Under the pieces are notes generated by a model, which was not told the DNA's origin, made no database searches, and saw nothing but the letters and a program-made list of their open reading frames with translations. Made by a program: the position numbers and the translations under genes. This document shows positions 388 to 62,794 of a stretch of 64,000 nt of DNA, piece after piece (the first letter of the stretch is position 1; each line of letters begins with the position of its first letter). The DNA is from Phoronis australis (lineage: Eukaryota; Animalia; Phoronida), in NCBI GenBank assembly GCA_002633005.1, contig NMRA01000168.1:499129-563128 (forward strand), read 5' to 3'.

Positions 388-3300
388 CATATCCAATTCC
401 ACAGCCACAATTAGTAACAAAACAGTTGTCGATGTCCTTTGTCAAAGATGAACCCTTCACAATCTTGCCGACGTCTTTTTTAAATTTCTTGACAGCCTTT
501 TCTCTTACATTTTTCGTGTCACCACAAAATCCGGCTTCTTCGTTGGAACAAGAACTGTAAAAAAAAGAAAACAGATTTCAAAATATTACGATAGCCAAGC
601 AAGAATCAGTTAAACGCTTATAAAAAACAGGTTCAATTAGACCTCATTCGAAAAGGTTCAGGCTCTGGCAGTCCAAACGAAAAATCAATGCTTTGAGATA
701 ATTTATAACACAAATGCTCACCGTTTCTTCCAAAAAAAAAATTAAAATCGATAAAGCATTGTGTAGCTCACTGGTAGCTAATGGTCCTTACGCCAGTCTG
801 GCCTATACAATCAAATCTTGGTCGCCTAATGCTATTCAATGTGAAGCTGAAAGTGATGCACAGCATGCAGCATACTTACTGTAAGCTCAATACTTTTCAT
901 TACAGGTAGACGTGCCCGGGTCCACAAAAGCATACAGCTGGAGTTCAAAGAGTTCTACCATTTTATGCTCATATCTAAGCAAATATTGCAAGTTTACTCA
1001 AGCCTATCTTCAAATTCACAAAATGGAAGTTATGTCTGTATTACATGTACATGTAGCTTGTCTATGCAAAGGTTATAATTTGTCTATGCATGTCTGACTA
1101 GTTCACATATGGTTGACCAATTAAACTCACTCATAAAAGTACAAAAATCCGTTCCCACCAACTGCAGGTCTGATTGCAAGTATTGAGTTCTCGTTTCTTT
1201 GGGGTAATGTAGTTTTAAGTGGCATATGTGTCTTAACAAAGCTCATTGTATCAATGACATATTGAGTGATAATGCTAAGTCACATGTCATTCTGCATCCT
1301 AAACATAAACCTTTACTCTGCTTACGAGCATTTGTCTTCCGCGCGGCCATTTTTCGTTTTAAAACAGAAAAGTCCACGTTAGAATAAGGGGATGACAAAT
1401 AAAATCGTCAGATGGAAGGAGTAATAGTCGTTATAACAACTATCATTTGATGGTGCAAGGCCAATAAACTTGAAATAATCTCACGTGGGTAAACATTGAA
1501 CAATCAGTTTGGTAAATATGCAAGGGTAAAAACATAAAATAGCCAATAAGAAACACAGCGGTGATGAGATTCGTCCAGAAGTCATCGTCGTCCGTTGTGG
1601 TATTTCCAAATTTTGGGAAGATACTCCAAGAGATCCAGCTGCGGACGCTGATGAACCCAAACTGCGTCCAGAATATGTATAGTTAGGGGCATAAAAATGA
1701 TTATTTCAAATTCCCCAAAAAACGTGTGCAAATGGGATTATGGTGTTTAAAGGCAAAGGCAACCTTTTTTCATGTCATTTTTAGCAAAAATTAGGTTCGT
1801 TGGTTATCCCAGACATATTTTCAACTTAATTACAGCTTTTCGTAATTTAACTAAATATTCGTTCTCTACTCCGGAAGTGACGTTTTGGGAGGCAAGCATT
1901 TCCCGCCAATTTCTTTTCATATAGTCTGACTATGAGAGCTGTCGCCTCAGTCATTGATCTACCTCCGTTGTGATAAGTTCGGTCGTCGTTTGCTTTTGTT
2001 TACGAGTCAGTCAACATGCCACACTGTTGCTGCGTACCGGGATGTACTCATTATGGCCCAAAGCTTGTAAGCAGCCCTGCTGCGATGTTGAGTAGTGGGA
2101 GTGAATACAGGTCCAGTCAGTGAAGAGTACAGTTCATCGTTCAATGACCAGATCGGTGAGCCAAACTTTGATACGTTTATTGTGGACTTGTTTAAAGTAT
2201 TGGAGCTATTTAGATGGTGCCAGGTGTCTGGCGAGGGAGTCACACGGCGGGGTGTAAGCAGTTTGTGTGCTCAGGTCACTATCCAGTGGGAGTGTTGTCG
2301 CGGTACACTCGGGCAAATGGGACAGTTGTTCCTATGTCCGTGAGACAATAATGAGTACATCCCGGTACGCAGCAACGGTGTGGCATGTTGACTGATTCGT
2401 AAACAATAGCAAACGACGACCGAACTTATCACAACCGAGATAGAACAATGATTGACTCGGCAGCTCTCACAGTCAGACTATATGAAAAGAAATTGGCGCG
2501 AAATGCTTGCCTCCCAAAACGTCACTTCCGGAGTAGAGAACGAATAATTAATTAAATTAAAAAAAGCTGTAATTAAGTGGAAAATTTGTCTGGGATAACC
2601 AACGAACCTTATTTTTGCTAAAAAAGACATGAAAAAGGGTTACCTTCGCCTTTAATGTCACATCTCTAGAGAAAGGCACAAGAGCCAAAATTCCGGTGAC
2701 GAAAAAAATACACGAAAAAAATGTGTCAAAGAGTCATATTAAGTGAATATACGACCTATGATTTGACAAACTTCGCAAAAGATCTATTGAGTGAAGTTGT
2801 TAGCGCAAAGTGACAGAGTCTTTGGTCTGGAAGTTTGAATTACCCATCTTTATCAGACTGCTCAGTGATGAAATAGAAGTCTTCTCCAAACGGAAGGTCA
2901 AGGCAAGCTCTGGTTGAATTTACGGGGTCGATAAGTGCTCCTCCTGTTGACAATGTATACTTTACATGTAGACACATCCATACAAAGAAGGTAACAATAA
3001 AAGGAATTAGATGCAAAAGATATAAATCAAGACTTCGTGAAACTTTTTGTAAAACATTTTCCGACGTTGCCGAGCCAACCGGCTCCTTCTACTGGGCATT
3101 GATGACTGACTGTTTCCCTCAAAAATTTCGACGCTCTCTGCCAGTGTTCACAGCCAACAACTCCAAGGTCATGAACCACGAGTCGTACATACTGAAAAAA
3201 GTTCCCAGCTTTAAACCAGGCAACCTCTCTGACATCTCGCTCAAACAAAAAAATCTCTCTGTCCAGTACTCCCTCCAAGTCGACTGTCTCAAACTAGTGT

Positions 3301-6300
3301 CCTGCGCCACAAAATTGAACAAACACTATTGAGACTAGACCACTGGCATTTGCCCTGCGAGGCTGTGCTATGTGTTTTTTAAGCGACCATTCGCTATAGC
3401 TGCCTCTCTGCGAGGATCTGCCTAGAAGTTTAAAGTGGAGCGCTTGAGAACAGCGCTCACGCCCGTTGACACACTCAGGATTAACTTACTGCACGTCAAG
3501 CCAAACCTCAGCGTGGTGATGTCGGTGGAATTGTGTACCACATTATCTGCGATTGTGACGCACGTCACGATTCCTATGTGAGTATGAAAGTGTATGGCAC
3601 AACACCGCAGGGCAAATGTCAGTGTTTTCAACACCACAGTGCTTGTTCACCTTAGTTAGACGTGACACTCGTTTGAGACAGCCGGCGTGACGTTACTAGA
3701 CACAGTCCTTGAATTGAGTGGGGGTGTTAGTGAGGCTGTCTCGGTTAAATCCAAAAACGCTTCTTTGAATTTCTGTGAATAGACACGGAAGGATCAGTTT
3801 TAAGTTGTTTGACTCAGGTGTTCGCCTAGGGCCTTACAGATCTTGTCTATGAACAAAGGGCAACGATTTTCTTTTTCGCAGGCAGGCATCAATCCCCTGT
3901 AGAAAGCCCTGGATGACTCTGTAACGCCCGGACAATTATTTTACAGTAAGTTCCAGAAATTGTGATTTATTATTTTTCGTATCTAGTTATTCACCTGGGT
4001 GAATAGTGATGTCCATCGCCGAATAATACATGCTCCTCTCAAATACGTATTTGAGCCAATAGCAATTTTCAGTTGTGCTTATCAGAGAGTGGAAATGTTG
4101 TTAACGCAACTTATGACCTTGCCGCAACAAATACTCTTAATTCGCAAGGTCCATCACAATTTCTTAGTCACACAGCAAAATTTCTAAGAACGTGATCTTG
4201 AATCAGAAGGGGTATCTATGTATGATTGAAAGATACGTAGATGGAATTTTGCATATTTTGTAATCAAAACTCCTCGTAATCATGCTCGTTTTACCTTCGT
4301 TGATCTGTGTTGCAAAAGAGTTCAATTCCTTATACCATGGTGCACCTTCTGCATCCCATACAGTAAGCCTTCTAGATTCACCGACGACTTGAGGACGCAT
4401 GTCAAGATAGACTCTTTCTTTGTGAGCACCAAGTCCTAAAACCATTTGCTCGAAGTTAAAAATGGCGAGACAGCTTCGAGTCGTTTCTCTTGCCAGATCC
4501 ATCAAGTGTTTCGAACTCTTGGTGTGTTGCAGTTCCACGGCTTGACCACTTTGAAAACGGAAATTTTCTTGCACATGCCTTCTTGTAATATCCTGATTAT
4601 TGACTGAGTAAGTTCTATAAGCCGATTTATCCGCTATTTTGAAGTCCTGGAACCTGCCGCGAAGAAGTTCAAGACATTCCAATAACTTATCATCAAGTCT
4701 AAAAAAGTGTTTTCCGGGGTAAACAAAATCCTTTACAGAAAAGTGTTCTGAGAGTTTCTTATTTACGTCTCGCCCGTCTAATAACTTAGTTGTCCTTGTC
4801 TCATTTTTAAGTTCTTCGGGGTATGAATATTCGTGAGCCATGTATGTGGGTACATCGATGGCCAGAAGTTGTGCTTTTGGAAAAGATACCATTTCCCCTA
4901 GCTGTTCTTCTTGTGGAAGTGCGCATACCTCGAGAACGTTGTTAGCTCCCATTTTTACATAATCGAAACCCGCGCACTGAGCTAAAATCGAAAGTTGTCG
5001 CAAATCCTCCGCGGTAGCGTTTTCCAGCTTAAGCTTTGCTGCCCTGAAATAATTCAAAATATCAATATGTTATTGATTGGAAACAAGGTTTAGCACGAGA
5101 AGAACATAGCATTACCTGGGGTCGTAACATGTGGAACCACCAACGCCTCCGAGTCGTTGTGGTACAGCTACTCGCGATTAGATAACGCAGAGTGACCACG
5201 CAGAGAGACCACATGTAGATACAACTATTGACTATGGAAATATCAGCATGTTCATGAATTTTCGAAAACCAGAGGTGCTGCGGATCACGCTGCAGAACTA
5301 TCTTGTCGATATTCACCTGCCCTCATAATGTAGTGAACCGTCTGGGAACTTTCCCCACGAGTGTCTACTGCTGGATGTTTTTTCACTCCAAGCATCTTGA
5401 ACTTGAACTCGGCGACCGTCTGTAAAAGAGAATAGCCATTTCTTCGTAGATACAGATGCGACATCAACATGCAGTACGTAAAACTCAGACCAAGAAAATT
5501 AACTAGCAAAATAAAATGGGGAAATGTAGATTCACGCTTTCTGCTGACCAATTAAACTGCATTTTCAATTAACTTTGTTTCAGATTCAAACCAATGTCAC
5601 CATCGGCATTGCAGCTTCAATGAATCTCGAAATGTGCTTGGACAGACTACTAACCGAAGATTTACTCATATCAACTTCAATACATTCAAGCCATCAATAG
5701 AAAAAGATGCAAAATTTTCCACAATAATTCGAACCGAGTCTTAAATACTTAATGACTTATATTGCTCAGTTTCTTAAATGGGAATATTTTCAACGAACCG
5801 AAAAAGTTTCAACGACAGGCGGATTAAAAGCTTGTGGTAACACAAAGTAAACGGGGTTCTCATAACGAGGAAAAATGTGGTTACCACTCCATTTCTGTGA
5901 TGCCAAGCTAGCGAGGCGTCTTAGGCGATATGCAAGACGAAACGACATCATCCTGTCCGCACATCTATCCATGACGCCATCTTCCTCACTGGCATCGTCG
6001 CATGAGTTGCAGTGCTCTCCGTGTAAACCACACCAGCTGTCAGTCTTCTCATCGTTAATGAATAACACGTCATCGAAGATATAATAGAACAATCTAAAAT
6101 GCAAATAGTACGCGAGTATGACATTACAGGAATAAGCCCTGTACCCCCGATACCTGTACTCGAGTTTTGCACGGTTCATATTAACTGCATTTACAAGTGT
6201 TCTAACATAATTTTGAAGTACGTTTTACGCCGATCGAGTTATGAGTCTACAGCAACTTGAAATGAAATTGTGCCACGTCGTTGCACATAAAATAGTGAAA

Positions 6301-9300
6301 GCCCAAAATTAACAGCTGAGTTACGCAAGTACAAGCTGTTTGCGAACGCGATGCATTGAACACTTAAGATACTCTTTCGTAAGTTCTTGTCACTTTAAAA
6401 TAAAGAACGAGCCTACAAAACGCATTGAATCAGACAGTACCACTATATCCGTGGTTTCCACGAGTTGTTTGCCTTAAAATGAAACCCAAATGTTCCACAG
6501 CAAAACATTAACCAAAAAAGTAATAGCCCGGCATGAGGCTTCAAAAGAAATACGCACTGCGAGAATCTTTCATCACTTCTTTTCACAGGGTAAACGATTG
6601 GTTTGCAAAATTCTTCTTCTGACTTCGGGTCCCTTGAACTCTGACCTCTATTAAGAGCCGCAAAGTCATCCCCACACCACTCTATAGAGGGCCAATCACC
6701 TGAATTACAGAATTATTGCGAAGATATTTACCATCATAAGTGATTAGTTCGAAATTTTGAGCATTTCATACGCCGATAAAGTTATTGTCACTATTTCGTT
6801 TATTTTTTTTCAAAATAAAGTAGCCAACTTAAGAGGTGGTTTCTGCCTTCATTGATATTTTGGAGACACAGATTTCGTTACACGACACATAAGAATTTCC
6901 TAAATGATCAAAACTGTATCGTTGCTAAGATCTAATTTACATGGTGATCTTATTTGAGTTGAGGCAAAGAGTAAAGGGCTAACGGCTATTGAGTTCCATT
7001 GACACACAATTTAAGTAATCGAAATATGTCTAAGTTACTGGTTACGTAGTTTAGGGCTCTTTTTCATGAAATGGGAATTTCGACTAAGGTCAGAAATTCG
7101 ATCTTACGCTCTACAGAATTTTCTGGAAAAGGCCCTTTCAAAGCCTCGAGTATTATACATAATCATATTGACATAATTTGTAAAAACTATGTCTAGGCTT
7201 CGGTGTGGGATATAACTAAACTTTTATTCATGAATTCTCAAGTGGGGGCGTGAGACCAAATTAATGACGTAATTCTTTTTAAGTCACTTTTTAAGAAACA
7301 GACGCCAGGCTCCGTTCCCGGAATGCCACAAAAATGGCAGGGAAAGCAAAGGAAATTTAATCCTCAGTGATAGCGTTTACCTCCACTGTTCGGGCTAGGC
7401 CCAGAGCTTTCCGTGCTCCGCTTTCTTCTAGACGTAGAGTGGGACGTGGTTTCTATCTCATCTGTCTCGATACTTATTTTTGAAGAAGAATGGAGGTTTA
7501 GAACAATCATGTTGATTTTGTTCACAGCGGGTGCATGAGTGAAAACTGCTGAGCCCGTGCTTTCAAGGAAGTCTAACTGCTTCTTTTTATCGTTCGTTAC
7601 TCCTCGTCCACAGTGATAACCCGACTGGGGTTTGAATGTTACGTCGCCACCGGACTTTCGCACACTATTCAGTTTTAGAGCTTCTTCCAAGATTTCACAC
7701 CTTGGATGTCCATAACCTGCGTTCCAAGGATCTCCCGAAGAGATGATTACGCTTGGCTGAACTATGTTCAGAAAGTCAACTGAGTTTGCAGCACTACCTT
7801 TGCTACCGTGATGAGCAAGTTTGTATACATTGGCTCTAGCGTGACGTCTTTCGATTTTTGCAACCGTAGTTGCTCCCTCAATATCTCCGACAAATAGCAT
7901 GCGCAAGTTTCCGTACTCTAGTCGAAGTACAATGCCATTGTTATTTTTATTGCTAGTTGTCTGTGAAGCAAGAAGTACACGCATCACGGCAATAGTAGGT
8001 GCTGTACAAATTTGGTATGATCGGCAACTGTCCTGGCACTTTTCAATGGGTACGTACGTAAAGTTTTTTAGATTATCCTTTAAAGTCCGTTCTTGGGGCC
8101 GTGGATAATAAAGCTTTATGTTTCCTCGTTTCGTTTGCGGAATACGACGACCGATGAAGTTAAAATGGTCGGAGTCTGCGTGGGTAACAAATATGTGTTT
8201 GACCTTAGACATCTGTTTATTGTTAATGAAACTGTCTAGATTACTTTGAGAGAAGTAGCCCTTCGTTTTTGCGGATCTCGAACCCAAATCCACGAATGTT
8301 AAATCTCCACTGGGACACTGTATGACAACGGCATCCCCTTGTCCTACTGGAAGCTCATATACGCGGACAGCGTCCGGTAGTGGCCTTTTCAAACCTAGAA
8401 AAACGAAAACGTATTAGCCAGTATGTTAATTTACAGATATTTCAGTATCCTCGAAAAACGTTAAAGGCACTTTGCCTAAAACACATTGATGAAAAATACT
8501 AGTTATTGGTGGAGCAAAACATCTAATTGTCACATTGCAACTTCTTTATCCTTTTATCACCTCATTTTGACATTTTACAACGTCACGTGGTTAGTCCCGG
8601 TTATTGTACAAGACAAACGCATTCGCGATATTAACATTCGCAGTGTCAATTTACGTGTACTAACACAAGAACTATCATTTCAACTACACAACGATAAATA
8701 ACTCACAACGTAACACCTTGACTCAGCAAATCTGTGAATTATTTCCTGTCCTAGTTGCAAACTAATACAGTAACTGAAATCGTTACCTGAAGCTCCACGC
8801 TTAACATGTATGTTTATGTCTTCTCCGCTTAAAAATATGGGTTAAAGGTTTCTGAAATCATGCAGTGGTATCAGCCAAATATTTAAGTGTGCCAGCAAAC
8901 TAAAAGTTATTTAAATATTCAATGCCCAAGGTCGAACACCCCAATCATTGATTAACCGCACGTTTGAAGAAAAGCCAAAGCTATTTAGTTCTTTGCTCCT
9001 TTCTACACGTATAAAAAATTAGCAAATTGGGCACAACCATATGCCTTAATATTCATGTGAGCGATGAAACAGTTTCGTTTATTTTTGCATGGTGACGACA
9101 GTCAGGACATTGCTTCTTCCCATTGTTCGGGTGTAAGAAAAAAATAACATTTTAGGACCACGCGCATGAACATTACAGCAAAGGTTGAATTAACTCAAAC
9201 TTCAGTTGAGTCAAGTACAAAAACATAGTAATATTAACTTTCTTAGCATAGGCACATGTATCTCTATAATGAGATCAATTGGGCTTACTTCAAAATAAAC

Positions 9301-12300
9301 TCTTGTCTTTCATTGATTCAAGACTTGTCTAGTAAAATTGTATTACCGCCTTTTTCTCCAGACAAATGTGTTTCATGAGCAACCACAACAAACTTGGAAA
9401 TAAAAAGGAAATGAAAAAATGCTAGTCGGTGTTAAAACTGAAGTCCGACTCGCTTGACTGCTATCATTATATACCCGACGCCACCGTCAAAGAAACAGTC
9501 GTTCTGAATTTTAGGAACATCTTACCTATAGGTCTACATGTAGGTGATAAAATTGCCTAAGCTGCACATTAGAAAGATATGGCGGCAATATGCAGGCACA
9601 AACTTATATGTGGGTGCAAAATACAACTTTATATTTTCGTAACACACTCATCGACACGCCACTTTTGCAGTTTTTAAAACTATAATTATAATATAAGTGA
9701 TTCGTTGATTAGGGACAAATGTTACCCTTAGTTTAGAACAGCCTCCAGCATCCATTAATAATTTTCAAGTATATTGCATTGGAATAGTTACGTTATGTTG
9801 AGACTCTCCAAAATTAAGTGTCTGATACACTCGACCATAAATCTATCTGACACCCACTGCCAAAGGAAATAAAAATTTTCCATCATTCATCCAATCCATA
9901 CACACGACCAAACATCGCTCTGTGTGTTTATCTACATTTCAATCGGTAAAATACCGGAATGATAAAAGTCAGTGAAAAAACCAATACCGTTTCATACTCT
10001 TAAAGAGGAAGGCGACCATTATATACTGTCATTCCTAGATAAATAATGAATAATACTTTCTTACTCATCCCAGTCACTGTTCAAGTTAATTAAACTACTC
10101 CAGATTCTAATTAAAAGCATACTAAGCGCAGTTTTAGCCAATTAACAGATATTAACAAGGATTTCCCCATCCCGCTCTCTAAAACATTAGTTTTGTCACT
10201 CTCATAAATTCAACCCTCAAATGTTTGTATCAAGTTTAAAAAAACGCCTTATACAGAATAAGTTATTGCCCAACAACAAATCAAAAGACTGACTTAAACA
10301 AACCACAACATCCATTCTCTGACACAGTAATTATGTGTTTTTCGCCTTTATTATCCAAGTGAAACGCCAGTGGTCCATTAGCATGTGACTCAGCCAGGAT
10401 TGATTGAAATCACCAACACAGAGTTTAATATCCCTTTAAATATGGATTTGTCACTCATTTGTGACGTTAGTGGCCGGAACAATTCGCTGTCCTCTTGGTT
10501 ACGCTTCATAGTACACACCTGTTGATTGTATATTACTTTCCATTGCCGCAATCATTTGGTTTCGACAGGTACTCTTGAACTACCCTACATTGAATTAGAA
10601 CTAAGTTGAGTGGGAATTAGCTAGTAGCAGGGTACCACAAGTACACGAACCACATGCATAGTAAGGCCTGCTGGTTGTTAGACAATGACCATCGTCTCTG
10701 TCTGGATAGAGACAAAGGTCATTGTTTAGCTGGTTGTGGGCTTTAGACAATGCGGTGACTGTTCACACGCACGGGTGAAACCATATTCATAGCTCTGAGT
10801 TACCTACGTCAACGGGCAACGGTTCATTCTTGACAAAAACGATCCTATCTCGATGGACCTTCCTTAAGATATCGTTAAAATACTTTATTATACTCTTTAA
10901 GAGCTCCTGGTGCTGCCATCTCGCTGAGACCCAGAGAAAGACACATAGCGGACCAACGTGTTATAAGTTTACGTACACAATGATGCATATGATGTCAAAC
11001 CCATTATGATGAGCATATAAACAACGGAGAATGATTTGAGCCCCTAGTGTTAGTTTGGGAGTTACACATACATGATTAAATAGGAGCTGGGGGAATTTAA
11101 TCAGATTGAAAATTGACCATCAAACCAAAATTGAAACAAAAAACACTTGCCTTCCGCTTTAACTGATTCAAGGGTACTTACTTGTCATGTACATGTTTGC
11201 CACTGTATTCTGTTTTTTAGGTTGACTGGTCACGACGATTTTGTCTTGTCGTTTTTCCACATCGCAAAATTCAGCACAGTTGGCCAATTTCTTCAATTTG
11301 GCAAGAGTCTCTGGGCTGTTGTCAGCAGTGTTCGAATCACTACCAGTAACACCTAATTCTACTTTATAATTCCCTTTGCTTGAAGGTCTCACTAAGAGTT
11401 TACCTGAAAGTATTAAGTGAGTGACTTAACAAATCATGAGTTTTCGCATGAACACAAAGATGTTCGATAAATGTCAAGCTTGGAAACTCAGAAAGCAATA
11501 TATTCCAGACGATTTATCCAGTACTCATTCGCTCGCTTTGACCGATTGAAGGTAACGCATTGAGCATCATAACGACAGCTTCATACACAGAAATAAATGT
11601 TCGTTGACATGACCATTCGTCCTCTCCATAACGGATGCAACTTTCTTGGTTCCAGCACTGTAGCCATTATCCAAACAACAAAATTACCAAGAATTATCAT
11701 TACCTAGAGAATATCGAGTCAATGATTCTCCCAAATTACATCAATGGTTTACCCTTTTCCACCCAATCAAAAAACCCTTGACTTTCTCTTGCCCCTAATT
11801 TTCCACTCCAAAAGTCTTCCAGAGTATGATCATATGAAATAATTGTTTTGACATTGTTCGCTGGTATGCTCACGTTGATACTTTTACTTACGCCTGCTCC
11901 ATCCATCTTCGCGACGAACTACATCAACGAAATTACGAATTCTGTCTAATAAACTGGGGTCTACAGACGTTTGTTCATTGCCATCCCATATGACGTATGG
12001 TGATAGAGAGGAGGTAGATGACCTTCAGGAAAACCAGCAATAACAACAAATCAACAAAGTTGTATATGTCAAGCCAGCTTCATAACATGCATCTTATCTT
12101 TTTTGAAAACATCACTGATTAGTACAAGGTAGCCTACAAAGATGCACCACAGCAGCTCCGCTACAAATGTGGGGAACATGCGTTTTTGCATAAATGATCC
12201 ATTTTGTTTAGTTTGTATATAGGCAAGCATGTTACAATTGAAAAATCGTCAGTGACAAATTATAGGCCAAGGTTCATTCATATACATATACATATACACA

Positions 12301-15300
12301 TACATATATAAATACATACATACACACATACACACATACACACATACATACATACATATATGTGTATTTAAACATCGCATTTGACAAACTTCGCATAAGC
12401 CCTCGTGTCGTGCAAATACGCAAAATGAGTTTGACGTTGGACAAAGAGATTGTCATTTTTTGTCTTCTGGTTTGAACTCTTGATTTTCACATGAATGCCA
12501 CTCTTCAATGTTTCTGATAAGTCTATCAAAAGCCGAGTTGTATCATAATATTCTCAAGTTACAAGTTGTCTAACTTAGCCCATCAAACATGTTACGTTCT
12601 TGAAATTGTTGTGAGATGGAGCCTTTGGATGGAAGAATCTTACCGGCTGTAACATCTACGAGACTGCTCCAAAATGCACCAGAAAATTGTTCTAATTTCC
12701 ATACAGATACGACCATAAGCAGCAACGCCGTAATTCAAATTTGACTCGACACTCACCGTTGGTGACGACGTTGATGGGTTTCCCGTTTACGGCATTTGAT
12801 TTGAGGAGCAACTGGACAGACCAATTTTTCATCCGAAGCCAGATTAAAAGTATTCACACCAATCGTGTCTCCAAATGCCCATTTATACAACTCGTAGTTC
12901 CTAGAATTATCATTTGACTAAATTGATTGAGCAAACGATATCAAAGGTTGAATATTTTTGCTAATTTGAGAATCACCATAACGTACATGCCATATTATAA
13001 TGACAAACAAAAGAATATTTTTGTCCTCCGGAATCCAAAAAAAAAACTAAAATGAGGACATGATCATGCAAGAAATTTCAAAAAATAAGAACACATAAAA
13101 TTTGTCTAACAGGTTGCAAACTATTTCGTCAACGACTCTGTGCATTGTAGCGTGTAGTATAACACTTTCAAGATGAAATAATATATCAAGGAATTTATCA
13201 ACTTTTGACAACATTTTAACTGTGTCAAACTAAGAACTTGTTACACGTAATCAATTATACTCTTACTTTTCCATTTTGAGGAGTGAGATGGACAGCCTCG
13301 CTTGACGTATTTCGTACGGTACACCAATGAAAAGATCCGCCTTGAAAGTTCCAAGTGTGGCTTTTCCCATAGCCGAATGCAGTTGGTATGATAATTTGAG
13401 GACTGGCTTTAATCTACAATTTATACCGGATCTCTTCAAACAGCATCTCAAATCTCATTAAAATAACACTCAAATAAAAGCGCTAGGTTGGAGCGACACC
13501 TGGAGAAATGGAATGAGAATTGTTGACTACGACATCTGGACCACGCTCCAGGCTATGATGATGACGCTGGCAGCAACACGAATGTTGCCGTCAGCAACAC
13601 AATGCCTGGATAGTAGGTCAACAACGACCACAACAAAACTGAATCGCCATAATGGTATGTTTTCATGATGCCTATTTCACGAAATGAACAAATGAAGGAG
13701 AAGCAGCATTTCAAATTGTCCATACCTGTATTGTTAAAACTGTAAATGCGTATTTGAAACAGATTGTCACACGCACTGACTATTGAGATCGTTGAAAATT
13801 TATCGTATAAATAGCAAAATTGGCTTATTTTGGCAGGTTTATCAGGTAAATGATAACTTTGATGCTTTAAAGAGTGTCAAATAATTTTTTTTTCGAAAAC
13901 GCATTATTTTGTAAGGACACATGAAGAACATGAAAAACCGAAGTCATCGCAAAGGTTATACATGCGTATGGATCGGGTATTATGCTTCAAGTACTTACCG
14001 GAACAAGGCAAAATTTGTTACGAGATATAAATAACATAATCAAGAAAGACCTGGGAATCACCTAGCAACGACAGTTACTGTAATCTGACGCTCCAACAAC
14101 GACGAAACACTAAAAACACCACATCTCTTTCACTGAAGATGACGCAGCGGACGGCAACATCGGCGAGTCATCAATGTAAAAGAGACGAGTTTGATGTTGA
14201 TACCGTGACAACTGCCAGTGATGATGCCATCAATGCTGGCGTTTACATTCAACAACTACATGTACCAACGCTGACAAGTGGAAAGCACACCCGGCAGCTA
14301 TAGTTGGCACTGTACGGGAAGACTTCAGTCGCAAATTGCCAAAAATTAAATACTAAGAGCAGGTAATTACTGTATGAGCGCACCTCAGTCAAGAAATAAT
14401 TTATAAGAATTATCTCAGTAAATAACGGTTATGCGTATATTTTTAGAAAGTGCACTTTGCTTATATGAGATTGAAATATTTTTCAAAAATAGTCATGAGT
14501 CACTCAGTGTCAAGAAACAGACCTCTGGTTTGTGTTTATAATCATAATGAATATATACAGTACTGTTATGTTTTTGTGACATGAAATGATAGCTTTAATC
14601 TGTATTCTGTTATCAATCTGATGCTTCAATGAAAGTATACGTATGTGGCGTCCTTTAAACTACTACCTGCATGGTCACTGATGTTCAAATGGCGTCAACA
14701 TGTTGTAATTGATAACGGGTATCAGTTGACAATGCTCGATAGCAGTGTCAACAATCAGCAATGAAAGTTGTACCAGGTAAATGGTGACCGTTCTGAGCGA
14801 GGTGGCGGCCTAGAAACACTTCATAAGCGAAATCATTTCAAATCGAAAGTTTAATCTATTGGCTGCTCATGACGAAGTTGTGATGAGGACCGTCATTTTA
14901 AAATTTTTAAATTTTAAAATCATTAAAATGATTACTTTCGCTGAACTCGCAAACAGTGTGGCTAGGTGTTGCACGTAAATGTACGTGTAACACTAGGCAC
15001 AGACCTACGTATAATTTCATACTTTCAAAATGTTCAACAAACTAGTCAAATCCTACTGGTTGAGAACGGCAAGAACTTACCCAATCGCAAAAGGCTGCGA
15101 CAACACAATGTCCAGTGCACCGGCTTTTCCCCATCCTATTCCGACTGCCACTTCGACCTGAGACGAAAACATGTTATGAACAAGAAAAGTCGCGTTTTAC
15201 AGCTGCTCCTTTTACAGTTTAATTCAGTTTATTCATTGGTTTAATGTCTCAATATTTTGCACACTTAAGAAACACAAATAAACTCACTGTTGCTTTCACA

Positions 15301-18300
15301 AAATCATATACGTGCAGACAAAGACCCCAAAATTGTTTTTACTGGGTCCTAGATCTAGAGAAGAAAATCAACTCGAATAAAGCAGATGGTAGTATGCACT
15401 GCTTTCAGCCATAATGTATACGAATGGAGTAGATGCACAGTGTACTGGCGTAGTCACAAGGGGCGCGGTGTGGCACAACCATCAGCTTCTAGTTCCAGCG
15501 TTCATTTTTCTAAAAAGAAATTGCTCATTTCATCCGGTGAACAATCATAGGTGTTCGGTTTTCACCGCTACCAATGAATAATTGTGGCTACGCCGGTGAA
15601 TAAATCACGAGATTCTTTTTATATAACCTCAAATCATTTCACGGGCGTCTTTACACAGAACACAATTACGTACTGAGATGAATCATGATAATTTGAAAAA
15701 CATCAAACCTTCGGATGCACGCTAATTGACCCCAGAACATCTGCACCATAATCAATTTTTGACCTGTGTCGATTGGCATTGAAAATGGGATCAACCTTCA
15801 CCTTCATTTGCCCATCAGCCTCCATTCTGTTTGCTGTAAATGTAAGGGTAACCCATGTCATTAAGTTTGTTTTATGTGTCTTTACTGACAGTTGACGTTT
15901 TCTTTCAACACAGTGGGATCAAGCAAATCGTCCATCGTAATATGTACAATATATCCTATTCAGTTATTTTGTGTCACCTATTGTTGCACTCAACACATAC
16001 TGTCGTTCGTGTGACAATTTATATGACGTGAAATTAGACACCTGTTGTCGCACGCCCGAAATTTTTTCGAGTGCAACAACATATGCCACAACAGTTTCCA
16101 AATGTGCAGTAAACACCGGCACATTGTGTCGTACTTAACTGTGTGGTTAAATTACCAGGGTTTTGTCGTATAAGCAAATCCAGAGTCAAAAGGAGACACA
16201 AAACTGTGAGGAAGTGTAATAGAAATTGGTGGAAGGGGAACAGTTCCACGAACTGGTTGGTGAGGATGATAACCATCCCTGATGACAACCTCGTTTGCAG
16301 AAGAGTTGCTTTTACAAAAAGGTAAATTAAAAACATATTCCCTTCAACTTCCGTTAGTCTCCCACTCAAACTCCTGATTCAAATGTCAACCCCCTTTAAC
16401 ATACAACTCTTCAACTAATGTTTGTATTTGCCCGTGTCGTCACTCAGGCCTACGCACAGAATCGTACAACCATATTAGTAAACATCCATGCAGATGCTTT
16501 TAGTTGGACGATCACATGTGCCATCACGCCGCGACAACACATATCGTCATATTCGACACATGTATGTCGAGTATGATAATACACGTCACCAAAAAGCTGT
16601 CTTGCATTTATTTCTTCTAATGGAAACAATACATACATGTTCAGTTTTTAACACCTACAAGCAAGTTCCCGTGTGAAGCACAGTGTTGTAGCATATATTT
16701 TCGCACTCTGTATATATTGTCCCACAGGCGACAATAGTACAGAGTGCTTGCTGCAACATATACCGTCCACATCGACATATACGATCTCCCGCCCAAAAAT
16801 CACAGATTGCCACTTGGTTTTAGTTAAACTTGACCAGTCGTTATACATGTATGGCTCGCTTACAGGTAACTTTGCAACCGACAAAGTAATGTTCACCCAA
16901 CTTAATTCCTAGTCTATTTAATTTGCGTGCTGTGACAACAACCTTTTAGTGCATTCAAATATAATTTTTACCGGCCCTACTGGGGATGACATGGATCTGA
17001 TAGGAATGATGATTTCATTGAACTGCACTTACTGACAGTGATGCTTCCAGTGGCGTCAAAACCAGTCGTAAACGACACTTCTCCATTTGATTGTATTGAA
17101 GCGTCAAGCCAGAGCTCAGGTGTTAGTTGGACATCAATTTTTATCCCGAGCACCAGCATTATTTCGAATTTAACCGGTGTTGGTAATTGCCACATTTTTT
17201 TGTTGTACTTCATGTTGTACTCTCCAGTGATGGTGAAGGAGAGATCATAAAAGATTGATGCCTGTCCACTGAGCTGCAAGATTAAAATGACAAGAAATAT
17301 GTATCCATGTATAGTTGTCGGTCAAGACAAGTACGTGCTTGTTATTCAAAATTTAGAGGGAAATACAAAATGCAAGCCAGCATACGTAGGGCCTGGAAAG
17401 GAGTACATGGCCACTCGTCTTGATTCGATCCCCTAAACTTCAGTCCTGGACAAGCAAACACCATGATTCCATAACTGCTTCGCGCCTTGATTCCATACAT
17501 GACGCGATAATACCCCGTATCTGGTAACGACACACCATACTCAGGAACCATACTCCAAATCCGGGTATCATCACCGGTTTAGGGTATTACCGGTGCGTGT
17601 ATGGCTTGGGAAGTGTATGGGTAACACCAGTCTGTTGTTTGCTGGTCCCGGTCGATGCTTTAAGTAAGGGCGTCCTAGCTGAATTTTAGAGACACCGCCA
17701 TGGAATGGGTTCTCCCCTATGGAACAGCTTTTACATGTAGTGCATTTCATCCATATCAAGCAACATACAGTACATGGCAAATATCTAAAAGTAAATGTAT
17801 TCGCATTTTCGCATTTGTTTCATGGTACACGTCCAACTCATACTGGGTTGTAGACCACAGGAAGCTTATAAAATAACGTCTTGTTCTGTTTTTAGTAAAC
17901 TGAAACAGGGAAAGGATTTGACAAATCTCTAAGCCATCCTAAATCCGCCTATATAATGACGAATTATGCCACTCTGGCAGTTGTATCGGTTTGTGCAAAA
18001 GCAGGGGACGAGGTTACACTCAGAATATAGAGAATTTCATATTTGTACTTGTTACCTGTAAGATATATTTCTTTATGTCTGGATAACCCTTAGAGTCCCG
18101 AGACATTTCAAGTTCGCTGGAAATGAAGTAAATATAAGTTACTTTTATAAAACTACGTAGATGTGTAAAACAGAAACAATAAGAATCAAATCGTTTATGT
18201 ATCCATCATTACTATAAGTAGGTTATACATATTAACTAAAACACCTTACAAGGAACTTCTTGCTCAAATACACCATAGAAGTTACGGCACCAAGTTGAAT

Positions 18301-18883
18301 CAGATTTTATTTCATGCGCTCGTAATAGAACATCAACCGGCAGATAGTTAAATCGTTGTTACGAACCGACATACCTTCATAAAGTTTCCAACACATGAGT
18401 TCGAAAAAAATTCCAATCACATTTCCCCATGTTACGTATTGTTTTGACTATTTCTTATTTGAAATGCAATAATGGAGGTGAGTATCCACTTCTGGAATTT
18501 GATAATTACACGGCGTTCAAAGCATTTCAAGTTCCTGTTCCAGATAAAGTACTTCTGAAACGTCGGCGCATAACTCATAAGCCACATAATGATAATGTCC
18601 CCTTCAGTTAGTGCCTCAGTTACAATGCATACCTCAAAGCCAACTCAGGGTCACCTTAGTAAAAGATTACATTAACTTGCATTACGGTTGCCTCGAGCTC
18701 ACCCCAGCACCACGTTACTGCTGAAGTGGTAGAAAAATCAATCGCCATATACGATTACTTATGAAGAAGCACTTACAAATGTATTGTTAATTTTTCGTCA
18801 TTGTTTATACGCAAATCAATATTATATTATTATTTTCAGTAGTAAAGTTGTTATTTTTGATTTTATTAAATAGTATTGCTATC

Positions 18884-18942
<59 letters not shown>

Positions 18943-19064
18943 CGTTATCATTGTCATTATCATCATTGTAGTTGTTTTTGTCATTGCTGTTATTTTTGTT
19001 GTTGCTGATTTTGTCATCCTCATCTTTTATCATCATCATGATCATCATCATCATCATGATCATG

Positions 19065-19096
<32 letters not shown>

Positions 19097-22000
19097 TGTC
19101 CTCATCATCATCATCGTCATCGTCATTATCGACGATAATGATAATAATGCAGCTCGCAAAACAATGGCTCGCCAGTGACCAGTGATTTTTTGTGTGAAAT
19201 AAACCTTGAGGCCTTTGAATCCTATTGCAAGTGACAAGTTTTTCAGTTGCAGTACCTCAAAAAGTTAACCGCTTTTGTTGAAAGCGGTTATGCACAAATA
19301 ATAATTTCGTTATCAATACTGATTGCAACGTCATTAACTGCTTTTCTGTTATCCATTTTAAAAACAATGTCCACCAAAATTTTCTTTTTATGTTGTTCGA
19401 AAAATTATAATACCATACGACTTTTTACAAATGTGACTTCTGTTCATGCCTAACACGAAAATACTTAGTAATAGTTACCTTTGAAGGCTATTGATACAAC
19501 TAATTTTTCTTACAAAGACCCCGTTCCCTCGTCATTTTAGAAAAAGACTTCATAGGATAAATTTCATCACAAGGCAATGACAATCATTGAGATGGCAGTA
19601 TTTTCTCAAAAGGAACAAATATTCAACTTTATATGTTTGAACTTTTGGTGGTATCAAAATGCTAAGATGAGTTTAGTGGCAACACATAAACTAATAACTT
19701 ATGACAGTGGTAATTGCAAATAAACACAGGGTCAGGATGCACGAAATAACCTATTTTAGTGTTTTCGTTTGATTTATGGAACCGATAATAGGATCTAATT
19801 AATTAAATCGGGGGTAAAAAAAAAGAAAAGGGAGTTTTTAATAGAATTAAAGACTCTGGGAGCATTCAAATCATTCAAACTTAGCTTGCAACGTTGTGCT
19901 TTCACCTAAATGTTTTATAATCCAGTAACTGAACTGAATATGAAACAAACATGGGATCAACCTCAAAATCATTAGCAACAGTTCTTTAGTCACATCCAGT
20001 TTGTTCTCGTCAAAAATATATCAAATTAACCTTCATCGAAGTAATTCTTGGTGAAGGAATGACAGATCGCTATGATAGTGAACACCTAGAAGAAAGGTAA
20101 ATTATAACTATTCCGTTCATGCTTCAGAGCGTTTCTGGTCACTTTCAAATAGATTATTTCATGTTCACAATATAGGTAAATGGTATTTTCAAATAGTTTT
20201 AAGGGCAACGCCGAATTGACGAGTCTGGGAGATAATAAAATTACATAGAATTGTGTACGTTGCTTGTATGTACAGGCGACCTAGCTGTGAGAACTTGGAA
20301 AAATACACTTGTTTCTATATCTTTTAATGTTTTTGGAATTCAGAAACACTCGCATTACCTAAATGCGCATTTATTACACTGAAAAACGCAAAACAGCTTT
20401 AATTACCGTTACTTCACGTTACGGTGACGCCAAGGTGACCCTAAGGTGACACTAAAGTCACCATAAGATACTTCGAGTGACTCATTTGCGACAATTCGAC
20501 AATTGTGTAATTCTAAGGAAGAACTCTTTACGGTAACCTTGAGTAACAGCTCGCTGTAACTTAGATGGGTTCGCCCCAGGAATGTACCACGTAAAAACAA
20601 CAGCTGCAATGGCAATGACAATACCGGTATTTGACCTATTCGTACTACTGAACCTCTACAGAAGAAATGTGAACATCCTTGAGTTAAAACATTTTGGCAT
20701 AACACAAATACTCACAAAATAACACTGGCATCAAATGCGAAGTAGCATGTCGTGCATTCTAGTCTTGACTTCACAGACCCTGTACTTTCTAACCTGGAAG
20801 TCTTTGTTTCGACAGTTTTTTGATGCTGAAGCAACGTTTTTGTCACTGTTTCAAAACCGATATCTTGTGTCTTCCCCATGCTGACCACGAACGTTCCAAC
20901 AGCACTTTTCGTGTCTGGGTCATAATTTACACCCACACTTTTGCCATTGCTGAAATTCCATTCGACTGGAAAAACCAGTGATAAGGGGTCTTTTATAGCG
21001 CCAACGATATTTTCCTTAATGTCATTTATAGTGTCCAAACGATCGGAGATCCAGCCTCTTCTTTGGCGGACTTTTGAGTATGACGAATAAGTCTTTGGTT
21101 CTTTTTTCGCTGGTACGCGATGGTAAAAGATCTTGGCGTGCTCAAATATATCATAAAAACTGAAATATACAACTCAAACTGCAAATGATATTCACACGTC
21201 ATCATTTTATTCTTCGAGATCAGCTCAGAGAATAAAGACGACCATTGCTTGACACTCCTTAGACGCTTGAAATTTGTCACGAGAAAGGCGAGTGCTTTAC
21301 GAATATGCTCATAACAAAATGTCCACTGAAGTGAGTGACTGGACAGTGACGGCGGAATGTTGAAGGATAAAGCTCATTGAAAATATTTCTGTCTGCAATT
21401 ACATCGCCTTGTTTTATTTTGCAATTTGACAACGCTTAAAATAATTTAAACCTGTCAGATATACGAAATGATAATTATTCATGACTTGAATTATCTATAT
21501 TTTGTTTCTGGTATAATCATGTACCACCGAGAAATGATGAATCGCTTTCTAATGATGTGACTCTTACGCAACCGCGGAGTTGAGAAGACTTTTAGTCACA
21601 GTAAGCGCCATAGCAAGAACCAACATAGCAGCAAACGATTTCAAACAAACGCCACGCATGCACGGGGCAACCTCACCATCGCAAGATCGAAGTTGGCATT
21701 CCGGGGCTGGAGTTCTATGTTAGAATTCCGAGTCTAGCTATACATCGGGCGCTATCAAAATCGGGTCATGATAACCAAGAATAACACGATTCAGCAACAC
21801 CTCATAATACACTGTACTTCATAGCGAGGTGCAGTGATGAAGTAAATGAATGGATTTGCAAACAAAAACTAAATAGATTAAGAGGTTGAATCCACTAGGA
21901 AGTCCAAGTACGTTACCTTGCTTCGGAAGTAATGACCTCAATGCGCTTGCTATTTACTTTTTTAACCGAACTTATCTTTCGGAATATTCCTTTCTCAGCG

Positions 22001-25000
22001 GCATGTGACAACCCTAGAAAAAACACTGTGTAATTAACGCAAGGCTGTGACAATACAGTCTGATTTAGTTTCTGTTAACCAGGAATGAATCACATCCATG
22101 TACTTACCTAAAACTATCAACAAATGAGCATAGCTTTTGGCTGGGTTATGGCTGCACAAAGCTGACCAAAGAGTCTGATTGAAATCGATAACAAGTTATA
22201 TTTCGTGTTAGTTTCATAGAAGGAGATCTGCTCATGAAATAAGCCTGTTAATAACCGATTGGCTTAAAATAGAATAAAATACAATTGTGTCCTTCAAAGT
22301 TGCTGGAATCGAGTTTGTCCAATTAGGTTGGTAAAGTTTAAAGTAAACAAATTGCTTTTAGTACATTGAAACGAACCTATCATTCAATAGTTGTCCTGGG
22401 TGTAGTATAATCCGAAAGCCTGGTGGTCTTACATTCTGTATTAATAACCCCGGTAACATTTAATTGGGGTCTCCAAAAAGTCAATCAAATGGTAGTATTC
22501 TCCATTAAATTCTGTCTAAAGCGTGCCATATGGTTGTTAAGCCATCGCCTATTGCTCACCTCTCATCAACAACAAGTGCTCGCACAAACACAGTAATTAA
22601 CAATTCTGGGCACGAACCATCATTTTCGCTACACTTCGGACCATGCATGTACATGTAACTGTTTCAGAAGTGCCAAGAAACAAAGAAAGGTCCCCTCAGT
22701 GGACATAAAAGAAACTTAGGCCATTTATCATACTATTCATTTCTGTGCCAAAAGCTGTCCTACATCTCATGTTGTTGCAGAGCTTCAAATCATTGCCGTT
22801 GCTCAAGGAAATCACCTAAAGTTCTTCTTAAGTTACGTCTGACAACATCTTGGATTTCCAAACAAACTAACTATCGAGAGTGCTCGCGAATGCTCTCATA
22901 CTGTCGCCAGCACTCGCCTGCTAAAAACTGTCCAAGAAGCGAGCGCTCACAGACACCCTCCTTTTTGATCACGCGTCTGTTTGATGTTCTATCTAACAGT
23001 GCAATAAACGAGACCGAGAGACGTCCACTTGTAGGTCATCAGAGAACGAATGAGTGAACAAACGTTGTACAAGAGAAAAGACAGTGGAAAGGTGATAATT
23101 GGAAGACAGACCAAAAGATGGAATGCTCCGCGGCAATTGCTGGACAAACTGGACGTTAAAACAACCAGTTACCAAGCCATTTTTTCTTAGACCGGCGAGG
23201 TCAACAATTGAAAACAACGAGTTACTCTGGTATTAACACATGGAACTCGATCGATCGTCGACGTCAGCAACATTTCAGTTTCTACCTCCTCTAGCTTAAC
23301 CGTACTCTTTCATTTCTCGGACCTCTAGTGCCTCACACGCTCCTTATCCTGTGAGTTGCTCGATCACGATTTAAGTAGCATGATCTCTTCTCTAGGCATG
23401 ACTGGCGTACCATTACATGCGTGTACATCATGCAACCATTAGTGGAGTGTAGAGTTATAAGTTCTGGGTCCATTCTGGGAAATATAAATCCCCGCCATGC
23501 CAATACATGTATTATCTATGAACCGTAATCAAAAGACCGCATACTTTTGTCAAAGTTTATTTTATCCATTAAACAAAGACAGGCTAGTTGATAAAATTCA
23601 AAACTTTCTGAAAACTCTAGTTTGAATTCAAAGAGCAGTAAAAAGAGGGAGTTAGTAACTTTACAACCATGTTGTCTTATTCTTGCAAAAATTCCCGGTT
23701 TTGCTTAAAATCAAAGTGAAGATGACCAACAGGTGGCCTGTTACACTATAATATTGAAAACACGAATTTAACTCGCGGCGTGCAAGTCTGTTAATCTTCG
23801 TTTTTTATTTCAGTCACACTATTGAAAAACAGCATCATTGTTAAAACAAACCCTGTTGGCACTCCCATTGGTCATCGCCCGTAATGACGTCACCATTGGC
23901 CCACTCATTAGCAACGTGTGCATCTTCAAATATGAAAATTAATTTGTTGCTGATGCAGACAATCCTCTGAAATAGAAAAAAAACCCCGTTCAGGTCGAAA
24001 TGAAAAGCATTACCACGACTAATGAGAAGCGTTGTATGAATGTTGAAGTAGAAAATATTACCCAATAGGAAAGAGCTGTCAATCGGCCAGACTGAGGCTC
24101 TTAGCTAACTAAGCAGCTGCAGTAACAGTATCGACAATGTTCATTTAAATGTGGTAACAGTGCAATTACGATATTCTTGGGACAAAACTTTGTCATGGAG
24201 TCTCCTGAGATAAAGCATGCTGAAACCAGTTTATCAAAATCTGCAAATAATAAGGTTTTTCAATGAAAGTCAGTGGGGGTGTTTTTGGTGATGTGCCAAA
24301 AATATTCATTTTGAGATAACATATATTTGGTTGTCATGTCAACATCAATATTACGTAAAACCCATAGGTCCATGAGAAACGCTNATAACTCGTATACGTG
24401 TGGACATTTTTTGATACATTTCTCTTTGAATTATATTAGAAACAAGGATCTATAATGTTACGAGAGAAAAGTCAAAAAATCTTTACCGTTATCTTTAATA
24501 CGCTTCTGAAAATTGGATTAAATCGGAAAATTTCATTTTTCAAAACATGTTTTTTATGTTGAAATTTGGAAGAAATGTCCTAGAAATTTCGTAGATATAC
24601 ACGTAAGTACATTCCAAGCCAATTTTCATGAAGTATACCTCAAACACAAATATTTTCAAATCTAGTCTGCACGTCACCTTTTGGCTATATCACATGACCT
24701 AATGAATGTGGCCAACAGGTGACCTTTCAGTCTGTGATACATAATATTTCCACGCCTGTTCAAGATTTACATATTAATACACTTCTCGAAAAGATTTTAT
24801 TTATATCATTTCTTATCAGAAACATGCACGCTTTGAGAAACACAAGAATGAAAGATAGCAATGCATTTCCATGTTGCATCGCAATATACTTCATATAAAA
24901 TGCAGTTTTGATGCCATTTTAAACAAAATTTAGTCAATCTCCATTCTAGAACAGCGGTATGCATGTTGTGTCAATACGTGATTTCTGGTGGTCAACAGAG

Positions 25001-62075: not shown

Positions 62076-62794
62076 GTACATGTAAATTGTAGATTTCTTC
62101 ATGATACCAAAACGCCTACAAACACATGTTCTGTCCAAGAAGCGAACGTTTGATCTAGGCCTTTTTCCGCGACAAAATCTGTGTCAACTTGTTCTTGTCT
62201 CAGACAAGAAGTGATCACCCGGTTTTCAAAGAAATGTCAGTTCGTTGTTAGTTGAGATCTCGGCGCCTTAAATGAAGCGCTGTAATTGTAGCCAATGTGT
62301 GGAGCTTTGGGTCTGTTGAAAAGTGACTTAATACGTTAGACAGGCGTTTGGTCCTGGGCTCTCATTTCACAATTACTGAATACAGGTTTAACCTTGCAAT
62401 TTAGCAAATCACAACCTAGAAGGAATTTATCCAAAATATTCCCTGCAACTAGAAGTAATGGGTGTATTTTCATAGACTTTGTACTTTTGCTTAAGTGGCC
62501 GGGATTTAAATATTTTTTGGAAATAGTTGTATAGAGCGTAAAACCAAAATTCTGACTTTTTTCACTTATTGATGGATCAGACCAATGGTCTCAAGCGATG
62601 ATGAACAGCCGGTTCTATCAAATCCCAGATAAAAATTGAAACCAATTCCATTACAGTGTGTAGTCTAAATTGAACTTGTTTTTATAGCCACTTAAAATTT
62701 CAAACTTTTGTATAATAACTGACCTCTTTCTACTAATGTCACTAACGACGACGACGCGTCTCACCAGATTGTCTCTAATTATCACACAGTCCTG

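Follow-up and report, generated by a model that had tools for sequence, protein, structure and literature searches.

A hexaxilin-like, ComEC-type MBL domain with an apparently complete metal site in a predicted secreted protein of Phoronis australis

A stretch of the Phoronis australis genome (64,000 nucleotides, hereafter the window) was found to encode a protein whose MBL domain belongs to a family that has already been described and named 'hexaxilin-like', after the glass-sponge axial-filament protein (PMC10772126, Nat Commun 2024). Judged from its sequence, the window protein appears to be a catalytically complete new member of this known family and not a recent import. We favor, with moderate confidence, the reading that this hexaxilin-like ComEC-type domain, which has a complete two-metal site and is part of an old animal protein predicted to be secreted, degrades DNA outside the cell as a phosphodiesterase of the Mn type.

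The domain exon and the gene that carries it

The MBL domain and a Ser/Thr linker are encoded by exon 13 (7381..8394, minus strand; aa 694–1031), as supported by splice signals, reads, Pfam and AF2. The exon is 1014 nt in length, in phase 1 at both ends and free of stops in its frame on inspection of the sequence, and is bounded on the minus strand by an AG acceptor (8396-8395) and a GT donor (7380-7379). It is the largest of 18 exons, the next in size being 749 and 444 nt, and its product has six Cys and a pI of 9.6. Sequence and junction reads thereby bear out a first-pass annotation, which had described an intronless phase-1 exon of 1014 nt, the largest in its gene, with THADSDH, GD, HHGS and YGHP motifs, added cysteines and a basic composition.

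Both junctions of the exon are crossed by RNA of a close relative. The downstream junction was found in 20 reads of run X2, seven reads of run X3 and one contig of X1, the latter having a 9-nt in-frame insertion there relative to the window; the upstream junction was found in seven and three reads of X2 and X3, respectively, with about 18–19% of each of these two runs examined. First mates at the exon 13 junctions lie on the plus strand only and, if the libraries are of the usual stranded type, the transcript is from the minus strand. Read depth in X2 was alike for exon 13 (25.6) and exon 17 (22.1), no reads fell on exon 13 in X4, and the gene was expressed in two of the three raw-read runs. 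Exon 13 is real, and is spliced and expressed in a close relative. That it might be an optional module, skipped in frame, as had been suggested, was not supported by the RNA of the close relative, in which no joint skipping it occurs among the 15 listed of 33, and by the presence of the same fusion in Lingula. Five of the 16 internal exons of the gene are symmetrical in phase, and symmetry is therefore hardly informative by itself. Exon 13 is not flanked by traces of repeats or transposons, and tblastn of the 1466-aa model revealed no second gene copy within the 64-kb window. Among 40 listed variants (there being 637 further), exon 13 has three changes, two of them synonymous, which is too small a number for a selection test.

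The gene model has 18 exons extending from 26893 to 2840 on the minus strand, encoding 1466 aa with no internal stop, and 14 of its 17 introns are backed by reads of the close relative. Exons 1–3 are predicted, based on splice signals and the match to a Lingula protein, not reads. Exon 1 (26618..26893, minus strand) holds the start codon and a predicted signal peptide (aa 1 to ~22) and matches the Lingula N-terminus; exons 2 (23966-23852) and 3 (22013-21917), both within 21917..23966 on the minus strand, align to the Lingula protein and have GT-AG signals that keep the frame. The model has a hydrophobic N-terminus in exon 1 and no further transmembrane segment, and the protein is predicted to be secreted. 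Exons 4–10 (12757..21159, minus strand), supported by junction reads and conserved in Lingula, encode an RQRR sequence (aa 194–197) and a beta-strand-like region (aa ~198–565), with a dibasic site near aa 565. No significant Pfam match was obtained for exons 4 and 6, and an Atlas search with the Lingula N-terminal region produced only leads under 0.9. Exons 11–12 (11182..12022, minus strand; aa 576–693), which are joined by junction reads, encode a spacer domain ahead of the MBL domain. The sequence of the spacer domain is possibly that of a decayed Hedge/M15-like unit, its match to the downstream Hedge-like part being not significant (E 0.42).

Right behind the MBL domain, the linker of ~25 aa, which is C-terminal to it and encoded in exon 13, contains RRKR (aa 1016–1019; 7418..7429, minus strand), a predicted furin-type site whose cleavage we infer from the sequence. 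The counterpart linker in Lingula holds KKR, and basic sites are at matching places in both proteins. Exons 14–16 (5317..6699, minus strand; aa 1032–1182) align to the HH_signal region of the Lingula protein and encode a Hedgehog-N-like (Hedge) domain that runs into exon 17. The Lingula region matched Pfam HH_signal with an E of 4e-4 and 20.6 bits, below the cut-off of 22.1, and SLHYEGRA and LA..AGFD resemble by eye the Hh motif printed in the accessible part of 10.1101/276295. Pfam returned no Hh match from single window exons, and PDB searches with exon 15, exon 16 and P0494 returned no Hedgehog structure. Relative to the H-x6-D / H-x-H zinc motif, as defined in that same part of 10.1101/276295, the Hedge-like HYEGRAAK keeps the His, has Lys in place of Asp, and H-x-H is absent. 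A search for PF01085 in four genomes gave no match and carries no weight. Exon 17 (4295..5043, minus strand) completes the Hedge-like domain and also encodes a region weakly resembling Peptidase_M15_3 (Pfam M15_3, non-significant with an E of 0.08); its single-sequence AF2 model was uninformative (pLDDT 40), and vasohibin matches in this exon were set aside as chance. The stop codon is in exon 18 (2840..2943, minus strand), which is supported by its frame and by 42 and 21 reads at junction 2942-4294.

Fold and active site

The domain matched Pfam Lactamase_B above the cut-off (E 1.7e-6) and its sequence matches in the PDB were six ComEC entries, the best ComEC MBL being 9ic4 (E 8e-14). The best NCBIfam match was ComEC_Rec2 (3e-17), with Avs1a, a DNase of anti-phage defense, next (4e-11); none of these matches reached its cut-off, and the score for TIGR00361 was 62 relative to a cut-off of 190. 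An AF2 model of the domain from an 87-row alignment (pLDDT 89, pTM 0.91) had the ComEC nuclease domain 9ic4 as its top Foldseek match (6e-15), and VIA-align gave Z scores of 24.7 for 9ic4 (rmsd 3.0, 243 residues aligned), 21.7 for CbpE and 18.8 for RNase J. The domain is closer to ComEC than to universal eukaryotic MBLs (RNase Z/ELAC, CPSF73/beta-CASP); CPSF73- and Integrator-type chains had Z scores of about 16 and ELAC1 a Foldseek value of 1.5e-7. Together with the presence of every ComEC ligand, the Z scores agree with the first-pass assignment of the domain to a ComEC/CbpE-type subfamily with an intact metal site.

THADSDH, GD, HHGS, YGHP and a motif III Asn make up a complete ComEC-type ligand set in the window domain. 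Motif II (T-H765-A-D767-S-D769-H770; 8165..8185, minus strand) is of the ComEC HxDxDH type based on alignment to 9ic4/30bt, and its counterparts in M. glycerini ComEC are H598/D600/D602/H603, whose roles are given in the accessible text of PMC12455585. The putative motif III ligand, N844 (7943..7945, minus strand), is invariant in all 87 rows, and motif III of ComEC has an Asn according to the available sections of PMC8579336. D864 (7883..7885, minus strand) aligns with the bridging Asp of motif IV (ComEC D700) and is present in 86 of 87 rows. H888-H889-G-S891 (7802..7813, minus strand) aligns with H725...S728 of ComEC, residues proposed to contact DNA, and H923 of YGHP (7706..7708, minus strand; 86 of 87 rows) is followed by a family-typical Cys (HPxC). 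Of the six Cys of the domain, three occur in 86–87 of the 87 rows, and one more is kept in at least 90%.

According to the portions of PMC8579336 and PMC12455585 available, the ComEC domain works with two Mn ions as both a phosphodiesterase and a DNase, and in those of PMC12455585 its nuclease activity is lowered by mutation of H598, D600, D602, H603, D700, H725 or S728, with D541 as a neutral control. All seven of these activity-relevant residues have counterparts in the window domain; the D541 position, where it has Pro, is the single conserved one that differs. ComEC/Rec2 (9ic4) is like the window domain in its fold, HxDxDH, Asn, GD, HHGS and HP, and also in its extracellular location, which for the window protein is predicted here. 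However, the two have only 22–24% identity in structure alignments, and the window protein is soluble, is encoded by multiple exons and has extra cysteines. Neither the competence domain PF03772 nor the OB fold PF13567 was found by Pfam in the exons scanned or in the Lingula orthologue, and no recognizable DNA-binding domain was found in the window protein. DNA binding by the isolated ComEC domain is described as undetectably weak in the same portions of PMC12455585. Literature also drawn on, as far as accessible, comprised PMC12642450, PMC12799240, PMC2362128, PMC6641155 and 10.1101/2025.01.14.632903; the terms 'lactamase' and 'ComEC' are absent from the available part of PMC4878875.

Family membership and origin of the domain

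Searches with the single sequence returned prokaryote-type ComEC proteins in 119 of 120 and 120 of 120 listed matches (22–34% identity, and 43% for one short match), the prokaryote-type label being based on Pfam or source names, with most matches unnamed. The sole animal-family exception was P0003, and an alien index from such a search would be falsely positive because all the rest of the animal family is missed. With a profile built from exon 13 and the cluster of P0003, 826 proteins were detected. Those listed, 120 in number, are mostly 340–470 aa in length and Cys-rich, 105 have a hydrophobic N-terminus, and the four named by taxon are from sponges (two from Amphimedon, one from Dysidea and one with an Em gene id read as Ephydatia). 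With an 87-row profile, 793 clusters were found at E<=1e-30 in a 50% library; of the 150 listed, P0532 at least is bacterial, as are probably another three. Ten clusters were looked up and the two that were taxon-named, Lingula anatina XP_013422193 and Bolivina argentea P309493, are both 'hexaxilin-like' in Supplementary Data 1 of PMC10772126. The hexaxilin-like listing in that study comprises sponges, three jellyfish, annelids, a brachiopod, the larvacean Oikopleura, five marine protists and bacteria, with the Rhopilema domain at residues 983–1258 of a longer protein, whereas choanoflagellates, molluscs and arthropods were tested in it and had no match. Thus, a subfamily that had been termed typically bacterial in the first-pass annotation includes a large eukaryotic family, with a few of the 793 clusters bacterial. 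Grouping with a vertically inherited pan-eukaryotic family, proposed there as a counter-test, was found in part: a eukaryotic family exists, yet it is patchy and not pan-eukaryotic. Pattern scans revealed ComEC-like loci only (21–30% identity), in four of 36 candidates from prokaryote genomes and three of 48 from viral contigs.

Among 556 fetched proteins the best match to the domain was that of Lingula (152 bits), compared to 103 bits for the best ComEC-like prokaryotic protein. XP_013422193 aligned to aa 9–1149 of the model (27.5% identity, E 5e-127) with the same layout, including matches to Lactamase_B and, below the cut-off, to HH_signal, and has the same MBL family, LPVGQGD..CP and Cys pattern. 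The MBL fusion is therefore old. The two proteins differ in that Lingula has QYG in place of HHG and the window protein extends about 320 aa past the end of the match. The hexaxilin-1-like protein P0447, an unnamed record used as a stand-in for hexaxilin-1 and recognized from its residue-35 match to the published N-terminal peptide pattern, matched the window domain with 84.7 bits and 26% identity over 339 aa, exceeding the 50-bit threshold of PMC10772126. The window domain is not hexaxilin proper (HXX-1 to HXX-8), as this identity is below the ~38% bound and the domain is outside the hexactinellid clade. Unlike the window protein, P0447 is a standalone protein of 360 aa that has lost its metal ligands: it reads SNPTEDH, SNHG and NP, motif II thus being lost, along with a single His from HHG and that of HP. 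HxD/HxDH, HHG and HP are kept in 181 of the 219 family rows of at least 300 aa, some of the failures being truncations or pattern misses. The finding that ligands are missing from the hexaxilin-1-like and Lingula copies and present in the window copy and most sponge copies is new here. At the position of S891 the family has Ala in 186 of 243 rows and Ser in 23, the window copy having Ser, and the family median pI is 7.0.

The trees used a subset of 144 clustered sequences and of matches obtained later, with L003 left out throughout and L010 left out of the 76-row tree. A quick tree of 71 rows separated the window domain and 34 family rows from 36 prokaryote/phage rows (SH-aLRT 100), and a careful tree of 76 rows (LG+G4) had a family clade of 42 rows (100/98). 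In the latter the window domain pairs with Lingula (100/97), nested with the standalone proteins L001, L002, P0464, P0282 and P0319 (100/96); long-branch warnings were raised among its prokaryotic rows. A tree of 34 rows had a eukaryote clade of 21 rows (100/98), which includes the window domain, Lingula XP_013422193 and Bolivina P309493, with window plus Lingula a looser grouping (90/86). P0447, P0509 and P0466 form a separate clade (100/97), apart from the window domain. Membership in the family is firm by sequence, whereas the exact sister group is unstable. P0527, P0537 and P0535, unnamed standalone MBLs judged bacteria-like by sequence alone, branch between ComEC and the family in the 34-row tree; a search of 151 genomes from a single phylum with P0535 (threshold 1e-25) gave no match and carries no weight. 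The family probably arose from standalone secreted bacterial MBLs long ago, a direction of transfer that is based on patchy eukaryotic and wide bacterial distributions, not a proven root.

A recent, lineage-specific transfer from bacteria in the form of an optional cassette exon is highly improbable. Such a transfer would fit with the near absence of other than prokaryote-type ComEC proteins in the single-sequence searches, with Atlas neighbors of the domain that are bacterial clusters, and with an exon that is intronless and symmetrical. However, the same fusion is present in Lingula, the eukaryote clade is well supported, and the signature LP[VI]GQGD occurs in 114 of 120 family rows and none of 239 prokaryote-type rows, a difference that is partly due to search construction. 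In addition, the GC3 of exon 13 (0.41) is close to that of the remainder of the gene (0.42), its depth is like that of neighboring exons and no skipping was seen among the joints listed. A 34-row tree that forced the window domain together with prokaryotic rows was rejected marginally (AU p 0.036). The recent-transfer reading is largely refuted, and what stands of the proposed horizontal acquisition is a bacterial ancestry, ultimately.

The domain being intronless appears to be a family trait that was inherited, because relatives in which the domain stands alone have it on a single exon that follows a phase-1 intron. In L001 and L002, an unbroken open frame holds it between a predicted phase-1 acceptor and the stop, with 16–17 codons from the acceptor to LPVGQGD (13 in the window), and the Capitella CDS in the table of PMC10772126 has 44 + 29 nt followed by a single 1067-nt exon, phase 1. 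On contigs, gene calls contain many sponge-type members in full, as would be expected if they are one-exon genes. The domain was likely shuffled in from an animal gene already resident; most simply, the domain exon was captured via its phase-1 intron before the split from brachiopods. The exon shuffling that had been proposed holds in a deep sense. Overall, a standalone secreted MBL of bacteria would have entered eukaryotes once in the distant past and expanded as one-exon genes, and the present gene would later have captured the domain exon through its phase-1 intron.

Possible function of the domain and its family

DNA would be the likeliest substrate of the window domain. In the proposed mechanism, the precursor would enter the secretory pathway, where furin-type proteases would cut at RQRR (194–197), the dibasic site near 565 and RRKR (1016–1019), freeing a ~450-aa piece carrying the MBL domain. 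Two Mn ions, held by H765, D767, D769, H770, N844, D864 and H923, would activate a bridging hydroxide for attack on the phosphodiester bond, and H888, S891 and a basic surface (pI 9.6) may replace the DNA-holding OB fold of ComEC. The conserved Cys would form disulfides, and the Hedge/M15-like modules, with their zinc ligands lost, would bind rather than cut. Potentially, such an enzyme would clear the DNA of microbes or biofilms from a mucus or gut surface.

It counts for the DNase reading that related defense MBLs are DNases. The anti-phage MBL pro-nucleases (Avs1a, HamM, Lamassu- and DRT-linked), with profile matches of 1e-16 to 1e-9, are ComEC-related DNases tied to proteolysis, although they are cytoplasmic zymogens cut within the domain, whereas the basic sites of the window protein flank its domain and there is no partner protease. 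Several observations count against this reading. Hexaxilin, the one member of the family that has been given a function, is a structural protein; QYG in the Lingula orthologue means that the fusion has persisted there although its site is damaged; most family members have no equivalent of S728 and the median pI is neutral; CbpE employs this ligand scaffold for phosphorylcholine; and the binding of DNA by a lone ComEC domain is undetectably weak.

An active secreted hydrolase of a phosphoester other than DNA, such as teichoic-acid or lipid phosphorylcholine (in a CbpE-like manner), cyclic nucleotides or another small molecule, is a less probable alternative that we nevertheless take seriously. 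Many bacterial matches carry PF23023, which we take to be the Apyc1 cyclic-nucleotide phosphodiesterase family, and the flanking modules descend from cell-wall peptidase folds. CbpE/Pce (1wra, 2bib) resembles the window domain in fold (Z about 21.6) and in the general arrangement of its ligands, is its second structural neighbor (Z 21.7 and 21.5) and matches the family profile at 1e-10; in addition, the ComEC domain has general phosphodiesterase activity according to the available sections of PMC8579336. However, CbpE/Pce has 13–15% identity to the window domain, phmmer with the domain alone found no CbpE at E<=1, and Pfam scans detected no choline-binding repeats in the window exons scanned or in the Lingula orthologue. 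Motif II is also of the ComEC type, with Asp in HADSDH where CbpE has His (PMC8579336, same sections), and both sequence and fold scores are higher for ComEC. The first-pass suggestion of a secreted nuclease or phosphodiesterase is plausible, and its phosphorylcholine part is the weaker one.

A chiefly structural or mineral-patterning role for the domain, as in hexaxilin, with its intact site incidental, is in our view rather improbable. Hexaxilin forms the glass-sponge axial filament, conserved silicifying roles are suggested for the Lingula and Capitella homologues in the accessible text of PMC10772126, the Lingula orthologue is without HH, and the Cys pattern is shared. Against this, P0447 has lost ligands and is in its own clade, whereas the window domain keeps every ligand, and the same text reports that no hexaxilin-like protein was ever obtained from demosponge or calcarean skeletons. 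No discussion of 'nuclease' or 'hedgehog' in connection with hexaxilin-like proteins was found in that text and 12 supplements of PMC10772126, although metal sites or domains may be taken up in its supplementary Notes 5–6. A literature search, outside of which most subscription papers lie, found no enzyme assay of a hexaxilin-like protein and no MBL-Hedge fusion.

Because the P0447 and Lingula sites are damaged and the window site is complete, we suggest an active ancestral phosphodiesterase, with hexaxilin-1 dead and the window copy live. Tentatively, and with more doubt than for the DNase reading, early animals may have had an overlooked family of secreted ComEC-type DNases, of once-only bacterial origin and directed against microbial DNA or biofilm. 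Hexaxilin would then be a dead silica offshoot of it, and the window gene would encode a furin-processed antimicrobial polyprotein that has a live nuclease and Hedgehog-N-like/M15-like modules for cell-wall binding.

The hexaxilin-like family has been named, but it lacks any enzymology: the one member studied builds the skeletons of glass sponges, and others have been read as possible silicifiers. Our results raise the question of whether the ancestral job of the family was the hydrolysis of DNA or other phosphodiesters, with hexaxilin a pseudo-enzyme. If so, the secreted nucleases of animals would gain a new class, descended from bacteria, and the source of a biomineral scaffold would be explained. 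The link to a Hedgehog-N-like module also bears on the use of that domain outside signaling.

Variation in the main gene relative to a close relative

Comparison of the main gene with RNA reads of a close relative revealed that exon 12 (11182-11403), which encodes part of the spacer domain ahead of the MBL domain, carries eight non-synonymous and seven synonymous differences, far outnumbering those of the other exons, among the listed variants, which are a biased subset of the variant table. This spacer may therefore be evolving fast. The relative's reads also have a 9-nt in-frame insertion at 7392-7393, within the Ser/Pro linker that ends the MBL exon.

Other features of the window

Just downstream of the main gene is an inverted repeat (1800-2602), whose arms of at least 255 nt are 93% complementary. 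Every read run covers it on both strands, with reads numbering in the hundreds. This element is probably a high-copy non-autonomous transposon. A second large multi-exon gene lies on the plus strand at ~46975-62089, although these limits are probably incomplete, with its start further to the left and its other end past the window edge. Its exons are helical, a Vitellogenin_N match is weak (E 0.11), and an M23/LECT2-like segment was recognized by eye near 59494-61159; we presume a likeness to secreted proteins with a lipid-transfer module. Trinucleotide microsatellites at 18791-19264 and 41575-41972 produce spurious long frames, and the window contains two N bases.

Other members of the hexaxilin-like family

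In one family protein, P0472, the MBL domain is accompanied by an immunity-type domain, a GTPase of the AIG1/MMR_HSR1 type, although the pairing could be a gene-model fusion. At the DNA locus L003 (24-1482), a gene resembling those of the family encodes a signal peptide but is split by a frameshift near 410, reflecting either a pseudogene or an assembly error. In the Amphimedon protein P0330 the MBL domain begins a second time, and contigs of identical length carry several members of the family; together these observations suggest tandem arrays in sponge genomes.
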